Below, one piece after another: positions 24,750-32,000 of a stretch of 32,000 nt of DNA. The translations under genes and the position numbers were made by a program. The notes beneath the pieces are model-generated. The model worked only from the letters and a program-made list of their open reading frames with translations, was not told where the DNA came from and ran no database searches. Every line of letters starts with the position of its first letter. Positions within the stretch are counted from its first letter, which is position 1. The DNA comes from Bellilinea caldifistulae (GTDB taxonomy: Bacteria > Chloroflexota > Anaerolineae > Anaerolineales > Anaerolineaceae), in assembly GCF_001306055.1 (NCBI RefSeq), contig NZ_LGHJ01000008.1, positions 1 through 32,000 on the forward strand, written 5' to 3'.

Positions 24750-25673
24750 ATGACAGACACGCTGCACCTGAACGAATTCCAAGCGTATTTGTTAGCCGAG
24801 GATCGCTCGCCGGTAACAATCACTGGCTATTTGGGTGATGTGCGCTTATTCGCCCAATGGTATGAGGGGCATTATCGGGAAGCATTGATCCCTGCTTCTC
24901 TGACAAACGAAGCCGTACGCAATTATAAGCAGCACCTTCTTGACCAGGCTGCCAAACCCAAAACGATCAACCGGCGGTTGGCAGCTTTGGCAGCTTATGC
25001 TCACTGGCTGGAGCAGGCAGGATATGTAAAGAATGCACGCAATCCAGTCCAGGGGGTGAAGGCTGTGAAGGAAACCGCGCTTGCTCCCAAGTGGTTGGAT
25101 AAGAAACAGCGTGCAGCATTGTTAAGAGCGGTTGATAAGGAAGTTGATGATGCCGTGCGCCGTTACCCACGCCTACGATTAATGTATCTGCGCGACGCAG
25201 CGATCGTAAAACTGATCCTGTTTGCCGGCCTGCGAGTAGGAGAAATTATCCAGTTGCGTATGAGCGACATTGTTTTGGATGAGCGAAAGGGAAGCGTAGT
25301 CGTCCGGGAGGGGAAAGGTACAAAGAGGCGCGAGATCCCGCTGAATGCCAAAGCGTGCAAAGCTTTGCTCGATTATATGCAAGTGAGACCAGACATAGAA
25401 AGCAACGAGCTTTTTCTTGGCCAACGTAATGAAGGCGTGCAGAGCAAGACCATCCAGCGGGCTGTACAACGCTTTGCGAAAAAAGCAGGGCTCAAAATGG
25501 TTACTCCTCATACCCTGCGCCATAGTTTTGCCAAAGCTTTAATCGACGCAGGGGTATCCCTGGAAAAGGTTGCGACGTTGCTTGGGCACAGCAACTTGAA
25601 CACGACCCGGATTTATACAACTCCGGGGGTGCAAGATTTAGAAGACGCGATAAATGAGTTGGAAGATTTTTAG
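24750..25673 (+). CDS. Tyrosine recombinase / integrase (XerC/D-like)
   Basis: Has an N-terminal SAM-like domain and the catalytic pattern AGLRVGE ... HTLRHSFA ... LLGHSNLNTTRIYT (R, H-x-x-R, H, Y). Confidence 0.9.
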   Translation: MTDTLHLNEFQAYLLAEDRSPVTITGYLGDVRLFAQWYEGHYREALIPASLTNEAVRNYKQHLLDQAAKPKTINRRLAALAAYAHWLEQAGYVKNARNPVQGVKAVKETALAPKWLDKKQRAALLRAVDKEVDDAVRRYPRLRLMYLRDAAIVKLILFAGLRVGEIIQLRMSDIVLDERKGSVVVREGKGTKRREIPLNAKACKALLDYMQVRPDIESNELFLGQRNEGVQSKTIQRAVQRFAKKAGLKMVTPHTLRHSFAKALIDAGVSLEKVATLLGHSNLNTTRIYTTPGVQDLEDAINELEDF

Positions 25674-25981: not shown

Positions 25982-26473
25982 TTATGACCATCTCGTTAAT
26001 CGTTCGCTACATTCCTCGGCGGGTAATCTTGCGCCTGATTCGAGCATTCGCCTGAGGGCTGTGGCGGCTTGCCCTGGCGTGAGAGCCTTGAAATGCACCA
26101 TCTCATCCAATAACCAGAGAACGCCATGCACTACAAGACCGTTAGCGTTGGCTAGCTCATTGAGCCGCCGATCCCCAGTCACGAGGGTTGCATCCAGCAG
26201 CTTGGCTAATAACAATGCAGCTAGGTCGATGATAGAAAGCCCTCGATGAGCTTGACGCAATTGGATTAGTTCAACCACCTGCTCAGCAGGCAGTCCGTGC
26301 GCTCTGAGTCCCAATACTTCTAGAGTCTCCCATCTGGGTCGAATGAGCTCTGGAATAGCAAAATCCGGGATCAAAAACTGATAAGGGAGGCGGAAAACCT
26401 CCACCAGTACGCCGCCATCTTCGAGGTCGATCCAAATATTGGTGTCAGTGACCAAAACCGACTGCAACGCCAT
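25982..26473 (-). CDS. PIN-like domain protein (putative toxin/nuclease)
   Basis: Acidic PIN pattern: VTDTNIWIDL near the N-terminus, IIDLAALLLA, and TGDRRL. Overlaps the upstream XRE-ImmA gene by 29 nt. Confidence 0.6.
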   Translation of the reverse strand: MALQSVLVTDTNIWIDLEDGGVLVEVFRLPYQFLIPDFAIPELIRPRWETLEVLGLRAHGLPAEQVVELIQLRQAHRGLSIIDLAALLLAKLLDATLVTGDRRLNELANANGLVVHGVLWLLDEMVHFKALTPGQAATALRRMLESGARLPAEECSERLTRWS

Positions 26474-27497
26474 CCTGTTGGAATGCCTCCGCCACCCAGT
26501 GCAGTTGTAAAGGTTCGCCGAGCAACTCTTTTGCTCTGGAACGCGAGATTACATCCTCCGCCAAAGCCCTATAGATAAGACGCTCCATGCGTAAAGGCTT
26601 TTCACTAGATAGCGCCTCACCCGGCTCCTGGCGATGCCAGCCATTGGCTCGAAAGCGGTGGAAAAGCCTCGTAGCGGCATTCTCTGAGATAATGCCTAGC
26701 TCTTTGGCTCGGAAGATCCAGGCTTGCATGCTCATACCGTACTTGTGCTTGAGCAAATACAGCTCGTTCATGTCCAGTGTAGTACGCCTGGAGCCCAGTT
26801 CGAAGCGGACTGCCTGCGCCGGGACCAGAAAAGCCCCGACAAACCGATGACAGGCAGGTTCGGGATCGAGTTCTTCTTTAATATCCAAGATCAAGTGTCC
26901 TAATTCGTGCCCCAGGTTGAAGCGCTGCCGGTCGCCAGGAAGCTCAGCCTTCGATACGATTACTGGAATACCATCAGCCATGAAAGTGCAGGAGTCGAAA
27001 TGCTCAAACCCCGAGACCAACCCCACTTTTATGCCTTGATCTTCAAGCACTTGAGTCAGGTTTTCGATTGGATCAAGGCCCAGGTTCCAGCTTTCGCGCA
27101 AACTTAAAGCAACGTCTTCTACCTGCTCTATCGCTTGTATCGAATATACGGGCAGGTTAACCGAGCGTCTTTCATCCGGGAAAAGGCTTTCGACCTCTAA
27201 GTATCGTTCTAGCCACTCTTGAATCCGCATCTGAATCGCTTCTTGCTCTTTTACACCCAGCGCGGCATGTTTGCGATACGCCTGTAACCGGACCGATATC
27301 GTATAGGGACGAAACAGGAAATCCATCGATACGTTCAGCGCCTGCGCCAGACGCAGCAGAACACTCGAGCTGGGGATATCCAGATCCCGCTCGTACTTCG
27401 AAATTGCCATTGCACTGATCTCAGCCTTTTCTGCAAGGCTTCGTAAGCTCATATTGTTCGCCTTACGGGCCTGTTTGATGCGCTGACCGATGGTCAT
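26445..27497 (-). CDS. Fused XRE-family HTH / ImmA-IrrE (COG2856, M78) metallopeptidase-domain protein
   Basis: The N-terminal HTH is IKQARKANNMSLRSLAEKAEISAMAISKYERD. The zinc-peptidase HExxH is LGHELGHLIL. AAAGGAGG SD precedes the start. Confidence 0.8.
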   Translation of the reverse strand: MTIGQRIKQARKANNMSLRSLAEKAEISAMAISKYERDLDIPSSSVLLRLAQALNVSMDFLFRPYTISVRLQAYRKHAALGVKEQEAIQMRIQEWLERYLEVESLFPDERRSVNLPVYSIQAIEQVEDVALSLRESWNLGLDPIENLTQVLEDQGIKVGLVSGFEHFDSCTFMADGIPVIVSKAELPGDRQRFNLGHELGHLILDIKEELDPEPACHRFVGAFLVPAQAVRFELGSRRTTLDMNELYLLKHKYGMSMQAWIFRAKELGIISENAATRLFHRFRANGWHRQEPGEALSSEKPLRMERLIYRALAEDVISRSRAKELLGEPLQLHWVAEAFQQDGVAVGFGH

Positions 27498-27521
27498 TAT
27501 CGCCTCCTTTCGCGTGTCTCT

Positions 27522-27559
27522 GGTTTACATTATAGCATAATTGTTTTATTTTGTAAACC
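27522..27559 (-). promoter_or_regulatory. Near-consensus promoter (TTTACA-N17-TATAAT) embedded in an 8 bp inverted repeat (operator candidate)
   Basis: On the minus strand, -35 TTTACA is at 27552..27557 and -10 TATAAT at 27529..27534, with a 17 nt spacer. GGTTTACA (27522..27529) and TGTAAACC (27552..27559) are perfect inverted repeats covering both hexamers. Confidence 0.65.
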
Positions 27560-27636
27560 GATTTGACCGAAGAGAGCGACCTCTCGCTGACCGCCGGGCA
27601 GCAACGTTTGAAATTTTGATTATTTGCAGTATTTCT

Positions 27637-28368
27637 TCAAGCTTGGTTCGATAGCAACGCTAATCTGGGCAATTCATCCCATGTCCGGCCGTCCAACTTT
27701 CGTCCTGATTTCTTCTTGTTTGTTCCTCCCCACTGTTTGAAAAAGAACGGAACGTTGGCATCTAGGCATTGATCTCGAATATCACAAACCCAAGATTCTT
27801 GAATGGGGCGAGCTCCTGGTCCAGATTCACCACCTACAATTACCCAATGAATCCCCGATAGATTTAGATTTACAAGAGGACCCAATAATGGTTCGAGTGA
27901 AAGAAATCTTATTGCGGCGTGTGTCTCCCGTAAGTGGTCTATTCTAAATGCGTAGTTTTGATTTTCTACACTCACTCCCATCCATACATTCTCAGGCCAA
28001 TACAGTTCTTTATCAAGTTCCAATAATCTATCAGAGCGCTTGGTAAGTACCTGAAAAGTGTGCCAGTGGGCCTTAGTCATCGTATCGAAAACCTTTTGGA
28101 TGAACTCCAGCGGGACATCTTCATGGAAAAGGTCACTCATCGAATTGACAAAAATCATTTGCGGTTGTTTCCAGTTTAGAGGAATTTCTAAGGCATGATC
28201 ATGTAGAGTAAGATCGAAACCGTTACGATAATTTGACTGCCCCATTGCTTGAAGCCGTTTAGCCATTCTTTCCGCGTAGCAATGTTTACATCCCGGACTA
28301 ATTTTTGTGCAACCCGTTAACGGATTCCAGGTTGATTCTGTCCATTCGATGGCAGAATTGGAAGCCAT
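27637..28368 (-). CDS. DUF5131 / phage Gp37-Gp68 family three-Cys-motif protein
   Basis: The N-terminus [30 protein letters not shown] has C20-x6-C27-x2-C30. Later blocks are [26 protein letters not shown] and FFFKQWG. AGGAGG SD precedes the start. Family name is from memory. Confidence 0.75.
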
Positions 28369-28422
28369 AAGAATTCCTCCTATCGATACACCTGTAATAA
28401 TTATGGCACAAATGTTCTTGTA

Positions 28423-29523
28423 TTATATATCGACTTTGAACTCGACAACCGCATCGTCTGGAAATGCACCTCTGCGTCGTTTCTTGCCACAAACTTTGTT
28501 AGGGTTCACACATAAGAGATCCTGTTCTTCTAAAAGTCTTAATGCTTTTTTCATTTGGCTACTTGTATAAGGCGTCTGATTTTCAACAAAAACCCGAATT
28601 TCACTTACTTGGACTTTTTGTGAGGTAAAAGCAGATAAGATTAGTTCAGACAAGGCATTAGACGAATCCATTTCAAACAACACGAGCTGATTAGGATTTG
28701 TCGCATCCGAAAATCTAAACCCACTTTCAGGATCAACTTTCCAAAAAGCTTCTTTCATCCGAGCATGACCAAGCGGATGGTTAGTTGCAAAGAAAAGGTA
28801 ATAGAGTACCCGATCTCGCTGGTCTCTCATCTCAAAATATCGTACAAACCGAGCATGATTTTGGAGTTGTGATAAATATAAACGGCGTAAGGCTTCCAAT
28901 CGATCCCCACCTGAACGAATTACATCCAAAACCTGGCGGGTGCCAAACAGATCAATAATGTGCTGCTGTGTTTGTGGATCGGAGCGTTCGATGAAACGAT
29001 TTACAAAGTCAATCATGACATTAACGAATACTTCTGTATGCGGGTTCTGCAATAATTGCTTTACCAAATCAAAGGAGAGACCTTTAAAACCGAAAGGATC
29101 AATGAAGGCAAAAATTGGAGCAAGATTAGAATTAGCCCGTCTTGCTTGGTCAAAAATCTGTTCCAAAATACAATGAAATTCGCCAGTTTCTACGATAAGC
29201 CTGAAATTAGGTGGAATGGTTAGCAGAGCGATTTCTTGCTTAAGATGCTCGATTCGGTCCGGGTTTGTGTCAATGAAAAGGAACACAACCTCGCTGTTCT
29301 GCAATAAAGAATGATGTTTTATGGCTTCTTTCAATGCTATGATAGGTGAGCCATCTTCTCCCCCTATATAACGCCCGGGACCGCAGAAACCATCTAGATA
29401 CATGATACGAGGGATCTTCTGCCCCAAGATGCCAAACCACGCTCCTAAGTAACGACGCAGGATTTCGTGTTTTATTTGCGTATGCGGTTCGATTTTCCAT
29501 ATTGTTTCTGACGATTTTGCCAT
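28423..29523 (-). CDS. Three-Cys-motif partner protein TcmP-like (Rossmann methyltransferase-like motifs)
   Basis: The N-terminus WKIEPHTQIKHEILRRYLGAWFGIL is as I recall for TIGR04474. MYLDGFCGPG is motif-I-like, VVFLFID has a motif-II acidic residue, and FAFIDPFG is motif-IV-like. Ends 54 nt upstream of the DUF5131 gene. Confidence 0.65.
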   Translation of the reverse strand: MAKSSETIWKIEPHTQIKHEILRRYLGAWFGILGQKIPRIMYLDGFCGPGRYIGGEDGSPIIALKEAIKHHSLLQNSEVVFLFIDTNPDRIEHLKQEIALLTIPPNFRLIVETGEFHCILEQIFDQARRANSNLAPIFAFIDPFGFKGLSFDLVKQLLQNPHTEVFVNVMIDFVNRFIERSDPQTQQHIIDLFGTRQVLDVIRSGGDRLEALRRLYLSQLQNHARFVRYFEMRDQRDRVLYYLFFATNHPLGHARMKEAFWKVDPESGFRFSDATNPNQLVLFEMDSSNALSELILSAFTSQKVQVSEIRVFVENQTPYTSSQMKKALRLLEEQDLLCVNPNKVCGKKRRRGAFPDDAVVEFKVDI

Positions 29524-29687
29524 TAACCGCTCGATTGTCTCTCTCTGTGATCAACTATCACAAATGTTTACCGATTGACGCGGAAGATTGATTGCTCTTG
29601 GATCGAATTAACGATCACATAACTATTGGAAAGGTGCTCGGCAGCCTGAAAGAGTAGTCGATCTTCATGTAATGATTGCTAGATTAC

Positions 29688-30431
29688 TCATGGCCGTTGA
29701 GAAAAATCATTACATTCTACAAATAGTTCTCCTCGCTCTTGATCTGTTATCGAACGAGTGTGAAATTGGAGTCCCCAATTTCTTAGCACATCGTATTTTG
29801 ACCATATTTTAGGATAAAAATGACGAAATATAAATCGGACAAAATGCCCTATACTAATTGGACCAAATACCGGCCAACGACACTCCTCGTTAAGCAGGTG
29901 TAAATGCGAGGCTGGATGTGTGTCAGTTTGTGATCCGGGGTCAAAATCGAATCGGAAGGGAGTTGAAAGCCGTAGCAGGTTTTGCAGACGGGAAAATTCC
30001 GATTCTGAAATCGCAGCTCTTAATGCATCAATTTCCTGAGTGAGCAACAAGTCGAACAGAGTGACAAAATCGTGTCCTGTCTGTATGGACTCAATATCCG
30101 AAGAAGTAATGACCAAGGGGCAGGGATAATAACAATTTCGATGTTTCGACAAAGTATTATTTGTATACAAATACCCAAATTGGATAATTGACCCATCAAA
30201 TAGCATACAATGATAATGCCTATTTTCTATCAGGTTTCGATATTCAGTTATTGTCGCAAACCTTCCAACCAAAGCATCAAATAGTCTATCTGGAGCATTT
30301 GCCCAGGTCAGGATTGAATCGTGACCAGAGTCCCGAATAATTGCCGAATTCCAATCAATAGCTAACCCCTCCTCTAAAAGAAAAGAAAGCAATTCGTTTA
30401 TCTGTCTTACCAGTGCTCTAGCGGTCATCAT
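29688..30431 (-). CDS. Hypothetical protein, helicase partner (possibly DUF2290-like)
   Basis: Start set at ATGATG 30431/30428, which overlaps the helicase stop within ATGATGACCGCTAG. Has a conserved-looking C-terminal block RFDFDPGSQTDTHPASHLHLLNEECRWPVFGPISIGHFVRFIF. The family assignment is unverified. Confidence 0.55.
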   Translation of the reverse strand: MMTARALVRQINELLSFLLEEGLAIDWNSAIIRDSGHDSILTWANAPDRLFDALVGRFATITEYRNLIENRHYHCMLFDGSIIQFGYLYTNNTLSKHRNCYYPCPLVITSSDIESIQTGHDFVTLFDLLLTQEIDALRAAISESEFSRLQNLLRLSTPFRFDFDPGSQTDTHPASHLHLLNEECRWPVFGPISIGHFVRFIFRHFYPKIWSKYDVLRNWGLQFHTRSITDQERGELFVECNDFSQRP

Positions 30432-32000
30432 CCTCACCCGATCTCCCAAACAGCTCTTCCAATTGGGTTCGAAGTTCGCTAGGCAAATTTTCGATGGCAA
30501 GATCTCCACTTGTAACTTGGGCAACAAAGTCCGCGAGGGTTTGCTGCATTTTCTGAACCTTCTCTCTTTCCTTGGGGGTCATGTCACGATGGATTTTTCG
30601 TAATCTTTCGAGTTCTACGGGAGTAGGAACTCGAAATCTAAGTTGGTAATTATCCAAAACCACCTTATCTACTTCAGACTTCAGTCCTTCCATAGCTGTT
30701 CCGCACCCAAACAACCTAACCCACGCCTTAGATCGAGTTATTGCAGTGAAAATAATATTGCGGCGCTTGCTTAACTCAAATCCTTCAAATGCATACTCGC
30801 TGTTCAAAACATAAACCATTGGGGCTTCATTACCTTTAGCCCTATAGATTCCGGTGATTGCAACCGACTCATCCTTGAAAAGTTCATCACGACTGCTGGT
30901 TACGCCTGCAAGATGAGTAGGGATATTTAATTGATTTAACTCTCTAAACAATATGGCAGCCTCCTCTTGGGCAGTTAAAGGATCAGAGAGGATAATTAGA
31001 ATATCTCGAAATTCCAATTCGTCTTCGGTCAGATTCTTTTTTATCTCACGTGCGACTGCTTTAGCTTGTGTAACTTTATCGGGAAACACCTGACAAAGTA
31101 TTGCATCATCTGAATCAAGTAATTGTTCGAAATAATCTGGATACGAATCCGAACGGCGTTTGAGAGCTACCTCTTGCCCTGGAGCAAGTGCACCAGATAC
31201 GACATGATACCCAACTTCTTCCCAGAGCCCCTGGGGATCATTGAAATATTGAACCAAACCTTGGTCGCGCTTTATGCCAAATCCAAGAGCATGAGCGATT
31301 GTTAATGCCCAGGGGGTGTTACGGTAACAAACGGGTAAAACAATATCCTGAGATGGCGATCCTTTCTCATTACGTAGCTCAGAGACTCGAGGCGAACCGC
31401 TAGAATCTTTTCCGAACAATTCGGAAGGTGGCACCATCGAATAACGACTGAGGTTTTGTAATTCGTCGTAAGCGTATACTATTCGTTTGGGTTCACGGGT
31501 CGCAAGATATGCCAACTCAAAGAAGGATTGTGGGAAATCCTGCGCTTCGTCTATAAGGACTACATCAAATATTGGCTGGAATTTCGCTTCACCGACTTCT
31601 TGTAGCAATTCTTGGCATACACCATCAAAAGCTGTAGGAGCGCCAAATGTACTTTTTGCATAATTGAAATCCTTGGGCAAAACGCCGTGAGCCATGGCAA
31701 CTTCGGAATAAAAGCCGGGCTGATTCGAACTACCCCAAGCATGAATGATGCGCAAATTTTCCCAGTTGGGTTCATCATTAATTTGATCGAAAGTGAAACG
31801 TCTGACAAGATCCTCAAATTGTTGATAGAGTGATCGGGTTTGAAAAGTAATCGCGATCTTCCATTCCGGTTTTAGTACATGAAGATAAGCTGCTTTCAAA
31901 GCCAAAACGATCGTCTTGCCTGAACCCGCTAGACCGCGAATTCTCTGCACCCCATCAGGCATTTCAACCGCGGCACTATTTTGCCATTTATCCAAATTAG
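30418..32000 (-). CDS. SF1 (UvrD/DUF2075-like) helicase, 5'-partial at window edge
   Basis: The frame is open to nt 32000. Motifs are Walker A IRGLAGSGKT, motif II VLIDEAQDF, VCYRNTPW, GIYRAKGNEAP and FTAITRSKAW. PEWKI after Walker A is shared with the 14550..16613 helicase. Confidence 0.8.
   Translation of the reverse strand, partial: NLDKWQNSAAVEMPDGVQRIRGLAGSGKTIVLALKAAYLHVLKPEWKIAITFQTRSLYQQFEDLVRRFTFDQINDEPNWENLRIIHAWGSSNQPGFYSEVAMAHGVLPKDFNYAKSTFGAPTAFDGVCQELLQEVGEAKFQPIFDVVLIDEAQDFPQSFFELAYLATREPKRIVYAYDELQNLSRYSMVPPSELFGKDSSGSPRVSELRNEKGSPSQDIVLPVCYRNTPWALTIAHALGFGIKRDQGLVQYFNDPQGLWEEVGYHVVSGALAPGQEVALKRRSDSYPDYFEQLLDSDDAILCQVFPDKVTQAKAVAREIKKNLTEDELEFRDILIILSDPLTAQEEAAILFRELNQLNIPTHLAGVTSSRDELFKDESVAITGIYRAKGNEAPMVYVLNSEYAFEGFELSKRRNIIFTAITRSKAWVRLFGCGTAMEGLKSEVDKVVLDNYQLRFRVPTPVELERLRKIHRDMTPKEREKVQKMQQTLADFVAQVTSGDLAIENLPSELRTQLEELFGRSGEDDDR

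Follow-up and report, generated by a model that had tools for sequence, protein, structure and literature searches.

A mobile gene pair encoding a predicted RlmJ-related methyltransferase-fold protein and a predicted variant radical-SAM enzyme

Two adjacent genes of Bellilinea caldifistulae, one encoding TcmP (a three-Cys-motif partner protein) and the other a protein of the DUF5131 (phage Gp37/Gp68) family, raise the question of whether their products form a functional unit and what S-adenosylmethionine (SAM)-dependent chemistry such a unit might perform. Both genes lie on the reverse strand of the stretch of 32,000 nucleotides (nt) analysed here (contig NZ_LGHJ01000008.1, positions 1 to 32,000), hereafter the window: tcmP at 28423..29523 (366 amino acids, aa) and the gene for DUF5131, a predicted variant radical-SAM enzyme, at 27637..28368 (243 aa). 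A first-pass annotation, made from the sequence alone, had pointed to class-I methyltransferase-like motifs in TcmP and to a radical-SAM-like Cys triad in its neighbour. Features without a stated strand are on the reverse strand of the window.

Our analyses establish that tcmP and the DUF5131 gene constitute a self-contained, horizontally mobile cassette for two predicted enzymes, with obligate pairing, and they relate TcmP, by profile comparison, to the rRNA methyltransferase RlmJ. We consider the chances about even that the two proteins modify nucleic acid in the course of conflicts between mobile elements and their hosts. The earlier claim to go beyond the current family labels was overstated: the radical-SAM reading of DUF5131, as a subgroup with a CX6CX2C motif, is already published (PMC9477430), and in Gordonia phages the annotation 'methyltransferase' has previously been given to TcmP homologues. 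Both window genes are ordinary representatives of families that already have names, and to a specialist the finding itself would come as no surprise. What is new is the statistically supported link between TcmP and RlmJ, with conservation of the active site at the level of single residues, and the quantitative evidence for an obligate, self-contained pair.

Family membership is clear for both proteins. TcmP matches TIGR04474 (E 1.1e-62; 212.4 bits, above the curated cutoff of 53) over profile positions 1-262 of 263, while the DUF5131 protein, 100% identical to a Bellilinea caldifistulae protein, matches PF07505 (E 5.8e-107; 357.2 bits, gathering cutoff 28.9) over positions 1-243 of 243. The 54-nt spacer between the genes (28369..28422) contains an AGGAGG ribosome-binding site (28376..28381), 7 nt 5' of the ATG of the DUF5131 gene. 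No terminator-like site or hairpin was seen in it, so tcmP and the DUF5131 gene are probably carried on one transcript.

TcmP and its relationship to RlmJ

The AlphaFold2 model of TcmP, built from 53 homologues (predicted local distance difference test, pLDDT, 86; predicted template modelling score, pTM, 0.85), comprises an N-terminal helix, seven strands in class-I order and a winged helix. The strands (b1-b7) span aa 39-44, 78-85, 107-113, 137-141, 164-170, 226-233 and 239-247, with a C-terminal b6-b7 hairpin and a helical insertion (aa 171-221) between strands 5 and 6. Foldseek comparison of this model with the PDB yielded 68 matches at E <= 1e-3 (best E 3.8e-5, probability 1.0), and all 50 matches listed were class-I SAM methyltransferases or aminopropyltransferases (SpeE, HNMT, EgtD, Abd1, KsgA, CmoA, MnmM, TrmR, COMT); a library of viral structures gave the same generic class-I picture and added nothing specific. 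The model, Foldseek and hhalign (see below) thus predict for aa 1-262 (28738..29523) an RlmJ-like class-I SAM methyltransferase fold with a seven-stranded Rossmann-like sheet. The C-terminal part (aa 271-341; 28501..28713) is a predicted winged helix-turn-helix, supported by the helix/strand pattern of the model and by PF22560 (GMT-wHTH, E 1.8e-11), the sole Pfam domain of TcmP, present in 53 of 53 homologues. Pfam searches at E <= 10 gave no methyltransferase family besides single marginal matches (Cons_hypoth95 0.23, RsmB-F 0.14), and sequences and profiles of TcmP and DUF5131 searched against PDB chains found no meaningful match.

The strings, residue numbers and spacer length quoted in the first-pass annotation were all confirmed by translation, and the three TcmP motifs occupy class-I positions in the model. 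Motif I (YLDGFCGPG, aa 42-50; 29374..29400), the D-x-F-x-G-x-G glycine loop, follows strand 39-44; motif II (VVFLFID, aa 79-85; 29269..29289) ends strand 78-85 with the acidic D85; and motif IV (FAFIDPFG, aa 138-145, including D142 and P143; 29089..29112) places a D-P-F-G loop after strand 137-141. Conservation was assessed in 130 representatives with 34-52% identity to the query. Motif I was conserved at 93-100% (D44 100%, G45 93%, F46 97%, G48 98%, P49 95%, G50 99%), position 85 was acidic in 130 of 130 (E in 106, D in 24), and the loop of motif IV was close to invariant (D142 100%, P143 99%, F144 95%, G145 98%); the residue after it is aromatic in about 75% of the family. Equally conserved, and beyond the motifs noted earlier, were H14, the K18-H19 pair of the N-terminal helix (29467..29472; the motif X equivalent; K18 100%, H19 92%) and G58-S59-P60 (29344..29352; 98-100%).

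These additional residues led to Escherichia coli RlmJ, which methylates 23S ribosomal RNA (rRNA) to N6-methyladenosine (m6A) at A2030 and whose sequence reads ...DVLKH...YLDTHAGAGRY...PGSPLIA...LTELH...LILIDPPYE. An RlmJ profile of 78 homologues (47-100% identity), gathered from metagenomes, was aligned by hhalign with the TcmP profile over 128 columns (TcmP 18-180, RlmJ 18-190), with a probability of 90.8%, P 1.2e-6 and a score of 53. As controls, RlmJ profiles that had been reversed (one) or column-permuted (ten) scored at most 20.2 (P >= 0.076), and the DUF5131 profile gave P 0.13. The relationship was significant only with this diverse profile from the metagenome scan: when RlmJ was represented by one sequence or by a shallow profile, motif I alone was matched (probability 7-8%), and hmmsearch with the TcmP profile gave E. 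coli RlmJ only 7.7 bits. PF04378 (RlmJ) was not among the 25 most frequent of the 27 Pfam families in a scan of the 53 TcmP homologues (E <= 10), and a comparison of TcmP with RsmJ gave no match.

In the hhalign alignment, K18-H19 of TcmP pair with K18-H19 of RlmJ, YLDGFCGPG with YLDTHAGAG, S59 with S100 in the equivalent G-S100-P, D/E85 with E118, and D142 with D164. Crystal structures and mutagenesis of RlmJ have assigned the binding of the SAM amino-acid moiety to H19, S100 and D164 and that of the SAM ribose to E118, and have shown K18 and D164 to be essential to catalysis (PMC3814359). Their counterparts are conserved across the TcmP family (K18 100%, H19 92%, S59 98%, D/E85 100%, D142 100%), which indicates that TcmP has retained the cofactor pocket of an amino-methyltransferase together with the catalytic Lys-Asp pair, and that it probably binds SAM. 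The resemblance of FAFIDPFG to the (D/N)PP(Y/F) box, previously noted as a likeness, therefore reflects homology to a DPPY enzyme, as D142 aligns with the catalytic D164. Even RlmJ makes no stacking contact between the DPPY Tyr and the base (PMC3814359), so that loss of this Tyr from TcmP would not be disabling by itself.

By these comparisons TcmP is a sister family of RlmJ and not a member of it. The two families have in common the class-I fold and the order of motifs X, I, II and IV, with K-H in the N-terminal helix, Y-(L/I)-D-x-x-x-G-x-G-x-Y, G-S-P, a strand 2 that ends in an acidic residue and (I)-D-P after strand 4. They differ in that TcmP has DPFG where RlmJ has DPPY, lacks equivalents of RlmJ Y4 and H6 at its N-terminus, has no counterpart in the alignment to a helical subdomain of about 45 residues (RlmJ ~52-96), and adds both the C-terminal winged helix and the helical insertion between strands 5 and 6. 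Furthermore, RlmJ is a solitary housekeeping gene, whereas TcmP is mobile and paired with DUF5131.

The cysteine loop of DUF5131

Cys20, Cys27 and Cys30 of the DUF5131 protein were found in a loop of 13 residues (aa 19-31; 28276..28314), with the C-x6-C-x2-C spacing that had been read from the sequence. This predicted cluster loop, C20-x6-C27-x2-C30-Y31, was invariant in 72 of 72 sequences of 31-75% identity. The same sample was invariant at M77, D79, K110-R111, S157, E159-P160, K211-Q212 and G179-G180-E181-S182-G183 (27820..27834), the latter after a strand at 175-179. T109 and a fourth Cys, C201 (27766..27768), which lies far from the triad in sequence, were each conserved in 71 of 72. In a broader set, 185 of 192 sequences had the 6-2 spacing. 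A divergent subgroup, mostly from Planctomycetota and of 31-35% identity, has a shifted middle Cys and reads C-x2-C-x9-C-Y in place of C-x6-C-x2-C-Y (the TcmP-adjacent DUF5131 proteins of loci L059, L070, L080, L082 and L084), while gp68 of mycobacteriophage Che9c has C-x9-C-x2-C. A shifted middle Cys is unusual for radical-SAM enzymes, in which the last CxxC is normally kept.

The position of this loop within the radical-SAM superfamily is best seen by comparison with protein A of the radical SAM mobile pair (TIGR04471/TIGR04470) from a plasmid of Lachnospira eligens ([Eubacterium] eligens). BLASTP aligned the two proteins over 201 residues (32% identity, E 3e-23) and placed the DUF5131 loop, Cys to Cys, over GCT---VGCTYCY, the canonical Cx3Cx2C motif of protein A; hhalign likewise aligned the loop with the canonical motif of protein B of the pair (probability 78%, P 1.7e-5). 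This correspondence indicates that the Cx6Cx2C loop is a radical-SAM cluster motif with a three-residue insertion, making DUF5131, as judged from sequence, a relative of the radical-SAM enzymes in which the triad would be expected to hold a [4Fe-4S] cluster. The interpretation agrees with RadicalSAM.org, which lists DUF5131 as Megacluster-5-2, a subgroup 'with a CX6CX2C motif' whose neighbours are spore photoproduct lyase and MJ0683-like proteins (PMC9477430). Within this SFLD subgroup the window protein is typical and has the published spacing, which differs from the canonical CX3CX2C and is an accepted variant of it (PMC9477430).

Protein A and DUF5131 are alike in being small, in residing on mobile elements with an adjacent partner gene, and in their homology over about 200 residues (HMM E 2e-23) with the three Cys aligned. 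They are nevertheless distinct: protein A has the canonical spacing and VGTMTG at the position of GGESG, and it is partnered by a second radical-SAM protein, together with a MarR regulator, in place of a protein with a methyltransferase fold. With 83 bits against TIGR04471, for which the cutoff is 355, the window protein is not a member of that family. The radical SAM mobile pair locus represents a different partner solution for the DUF5131 enzyme lineage; on the L. eligens plasmid (L091:2531-4550) it consists of the MarR regulator, protein A and protein B, the latter also canonical.

The structural evidence is weak. In the DUF5131 model (pLDDT 75), strands and helices follow one another in turn, as in a partial triosephosphate isomerase (TIM) barrel, and Foldseek comparison did not distinguish a barrel of radical-SAM type from the ordinary TIM kind. 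The radical-SAM-like label given to DUF5131 stood as far as the Cys triad is concerned, since the triad aligns with the canonical motif of protein A, and did not gain specific support from the fold, for which the Foldseek matches were of TIM-barrel type and weak. Conservation across the families, far above what chance would give, bore out the motifs proposed for both proteins.

A mobile pair and its possible chemistry

TcmP is a large family, with 5036 representative clusters at E <= 1e-3. In a scan of one genome per species we found at least 549 relatives, and the best 80 loci were examined for gene content. DUF5131 was adjacent to TcmP in 78 of these 80, the two exceptions being contig-end cases. 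The loci came from at least 12 phyla, including Chloroflexota, Acidobacteriota, Myxococcota, Planctomycetota, Bacteroidota, Pseudomonadota and Nitrospirota. TcmP preceded DUF5131 in 46 loci and followed it in 20, and in 12 the genes were on opposite strands, a variability that points to functional coupling rather than to inherited operon structure. All-against-all clustering of the neighbouring open reading frames (ORFs) revealed no third conserved gene, the next real cluster being present in 6 of 80 loci. Clusters of ORFs found in 19-48 loci were rejected as additional partners, as they were shadow ORFs overlapping tcmP or DUF5131.

The pairing extends to mobile elements. It holds at 22-24% TcmP identity on the conjugative plasmids pSymA and pCAR1 (IncP-7). 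Gordonia phage Easley carries the pair within its lysogeny module, flanked by the integrase and the immunity repressor. The dependence is one-sided, since TcmP is tied to DUF5131 and DUF5131 often occurs alone: DUF5131 was found in 181 phage and 439 plasmid records, versus 10 and 102 for TcmP. Solo DUF5131 proteins are longer (340-386 aa, about 100 aa extra), with added C-terminal and internal segments, one of them Cys-rich in Che9c gp68. They are encoded in replication, recombination and transfer modules of phages and plasmids (L010:4908-6068 for Che9c gp68; L092, L095, L096, L097 and L098), where HNH genes were found nearby, an ASCH-domain gene was directly adjacent twice (Che9c and an Acaryochloris plasmid), and DNA methyltransferase genes (C5, MT-A70) lay a few genes away in several cases.

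A connection with defence is suggested by both the profiles and the surroundings of the pair. Adjacent window genes match both components of two PADLOC candidate systems: PDC-M30A (E 1.8e-55) and PDC-M41A (1.8e-13) are matched by TcmP, PDC-M41B (4.9e-126) and PDC-M30B (5.2e-121) by DUF5131. These systems are computational candidates only, and no report of a defence test of PDC-M30 or PDC-M41 was found in the literature searched. In some loci the pair is flanked by type III and type II restriction-modification, Mrr, AbiEii or helicase-DUF2290 genes. On pSymA of Sinorhizobium meliloti (L093 45065-55949), the genes that come after the pair, on the opposite strand, encode an HD-domain protein, an AAA ATPase, a 3'-5' exonuclease and a further protein of radical-SAM type. 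The TcmP gene there, SMa2243, lies near the gene for the defence helicase Hna (SMa2245) and is reported to be co-upregulated with hna when NolR is functional (J Bacteriol 2025).

How might two such proteins work together? TcmP would bind nucleic acid through its winged helix, DNA being favoured and structured RNA possible, and would place a flipped-out base in its RlmJ-like pocket, where it might methylate the exocyclic amine or merely present the base. DUF5131 would then cleave SAM reductively and direct radical chemistry to the same nucleotide, and the resulting modification would serve for defence or counter-defence where mobile elements and their hosts are in conflict. A precedent by analogy, with no homology claimed, is wybutosine synthesis, in which the radical-SAM enzyme TYW1 and TYW2, a class-I-fold SAM-dependent transferase, act successively on one base; unlike the pair, these are separately encoded housekeeping enzymes of transfer RNA (tRNA) modification. 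In its full form, namely that the pair installs a hitherto undescribed radical-SAM-dependent modification on DNA or structured RNA, with both enzymes acting on the same nucleotide, and represents a new class of modification-based defence or counter-defence, we propose this scheme tentatively, as possible rather than probable. If true, it would add a radical-SAM branch to the modification systems of phage-host conflict and possibly provide a new enzymatic tool. Spread over many phyla, plasmids and temperate phages, the module is in any case an attractive candidate for new nucleic-acid chemistry, and the RlmJ residue set together with the radical-SAM-type loop makes the hypothesis concrete by singling out K18, D142, C20, C27 and C30.

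Several observations weigh against this scheme. On the side of DUF5131, Pfam Radical_SAM (PF04055) was not matched by any of 41 homologues at E <= 10, and Foldseek gave no match at E <= 1e-3 with a model in which the Cys loop has a pLDDT below 50: the best hit was a TIM barrel, a sugar epimerase (E 8.5e-3), the E values for spore photoproduct lyase and lipoyl synthase being 0.054 and 0.1. The GGE motif of radical-SAM enzymes normally follows strand 2, whereas GGESG lies late in the DUF5131 chain; given this position and its absence from protein A, it cannot be equated with that motif. On the side of TcmP, the second Pro and the Tyr of DPPY are missing, as are RlmJ Y4 and H6, so that methyl transfer may not occur. 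Moreover, other pair loci lie among housekeeping rather than defence genes, and the literature searched yielded no biochemical or genetic studies of either family, nor any account of an Fe-S cluster or of SAM cleavage for the DUF5131 subgroup. Finally, RlmJ, the closest characterized homologue, acts on RNA and not on DNA: its substrate is A2030 within an RNA hairpin, and it shows no activity towards single-stranded DNA (PMC3814359).

The substrate preference of RlmJ favours an alternative in which the target is RNA, with TcmP recognizing structured rRNA or tRNA and DUF5131 acting on the same nucleotide, in the manner of RlmN/Cfr or TYW1-TYW2, so as to alter translation. Several pair loci are indeed situated among tRNA synthetase, primase and sigma factor genes, and the wybutosine pathway sets a precedent on a tRNA base for the sequential use of a radical-SAM and a class-I-fold enzyme. 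Against it, a C-terminal winged helix is more typical of binding to double-stranded DNA, the mobility, patchy distribution and low guanine-plus-cytosine (GC) content of the pair are unlike those of core RNA-modification genes, and solo DUF5131 associates with genes for DNA methyltransferases, single-stranded DNA-binding protein and DNA polymerase. We regard an RNA-directed role in translation as unlikely.

The defence-island location raises a further alternative, a pair resembling restriction-modification, in which DUF5131 would be a TIM-barrel nuclease or lyase with a structural Fe-S or zinc site and TcmP would methylate host DNA for protection. C-x6-C-x2-C is also the spacing of the first three Cys in the cluster loop of endonuclease III and MutY, and such a role would fit the nearly invariant C201 (71 of 72), the variable gene order and orientation, as in such pairs, the PADLOC candidate matches, the missing Pfam Radical_SAM match and best Foldseek hits that are non-radical-SAM TIM barrels. 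Points against it are the homology of DUF5131 along its length to a canonical Cx3Cx2C family (E 3e-23), its curation as a radical-SAM subgroup and the lack of a fourth Cys at x5 after C30. Among top hits DUF5131 is, in addition, more conserved than TcmP (75-94% versus 54-89% identity), the opposite of what is typical of fast-evolving restriction nucleases; phages and plasmids hold hundreds of solo DUF5131 genes that have no TcmP beside them; neither protein matches a nuclease family; and the 80 loci hold no conserved third gene. Taken together, these points render a restriction-type function for the pair quite improbable.

Least likely of all is a DNA-repair module, in which DUF5131 would reverse lesions as a lyase akin to spore photoproduct lyase and TcmP would recognize the lesion and flip the base without methyl transfer, for although DUF5131 has spore photoproduct lyase and MJ0683-like proteins as its neighbours in radical-SAM sequence space (PMC9477430), shows weak Foldseek matches to spore photoproduct lyase structures (E 0.054-0.12), has one phage homologue annotated as such a lyase, and occurs as solo copies in phage replication and recombination modules and in phages of phototrophs, and although TcmP has DPFG rather than DPPY, those structural matches are not significant, TcmP keeps every checkable RlmJ residue for SAM binding and catalysis, which argues for an active SAM site, and the setting, in defence islands and a lysogeny module, gives no hint of housekeeping repair.

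Surroundings of the pair in the window

The pair has a GC content of 41.9%, versus 53.3% in the rest of the window. Low values extend over 27001..32000 (41-47%), whereas most of the remaining window is at 50-59%, which is consistent with 27001..32000 being a horizontally acquired island that holds two candidate defence pairs. The second of these lies directly upstream of tcmP and comprises genes for a DUF2290 protein (29688..30527) and a UvrD-like helicase (30418..32000), which by sequence correspond to the helicase-DUF2290 candidate pair of PADLOC. The helicase matches the PADLOC 'Helicase' profile PDLC03002 with E 1.8e-196, from position 191 of 707; its ORF is open at the window end, with the N-terminus outside the window. 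As the listed DUF2290 ORF overlaps the helicase gene by 110 nt, its true start is probably an internal Met.

On the other side, the pair is bordered by genes for an HTH-M78 peptidase, a PIN protein and a tyrosine recombinase. The first, just downstream of DUF5131 (26445..27497), encodes a helix-turn-helix (HTH) domain fused to an M78/ImmA-type peptidase; the product matches PADLOC RmrA (E ~1e-50), resembles the spr1629 repressor/antitoxin family and has weak matches to capP and capH. The gene has a promoter-like site of its own (27529..27557; TTTACA-17-TATAAT, 11 of 12 near-consensus, with a TG extension). In both locus L001 and Gordonia phage Easley, DUF5131 adjoins an HTH gene and a separate M78 gene. 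As a third component of the cassette the gene was rejected, since no more than 2 of 80 loci have a similar gene. A gene for a PIN/DUF3368 protein (25982..26473) overlaps the HTH-M78 gene at its end, and together they might constitute a toxin-antitoxin-like pair. The window contains no tRNA gene. Beyond the PIN gene, on the forward strand, lies a gene for a XerC/D-like tyrosine recombinase (24750..25673).

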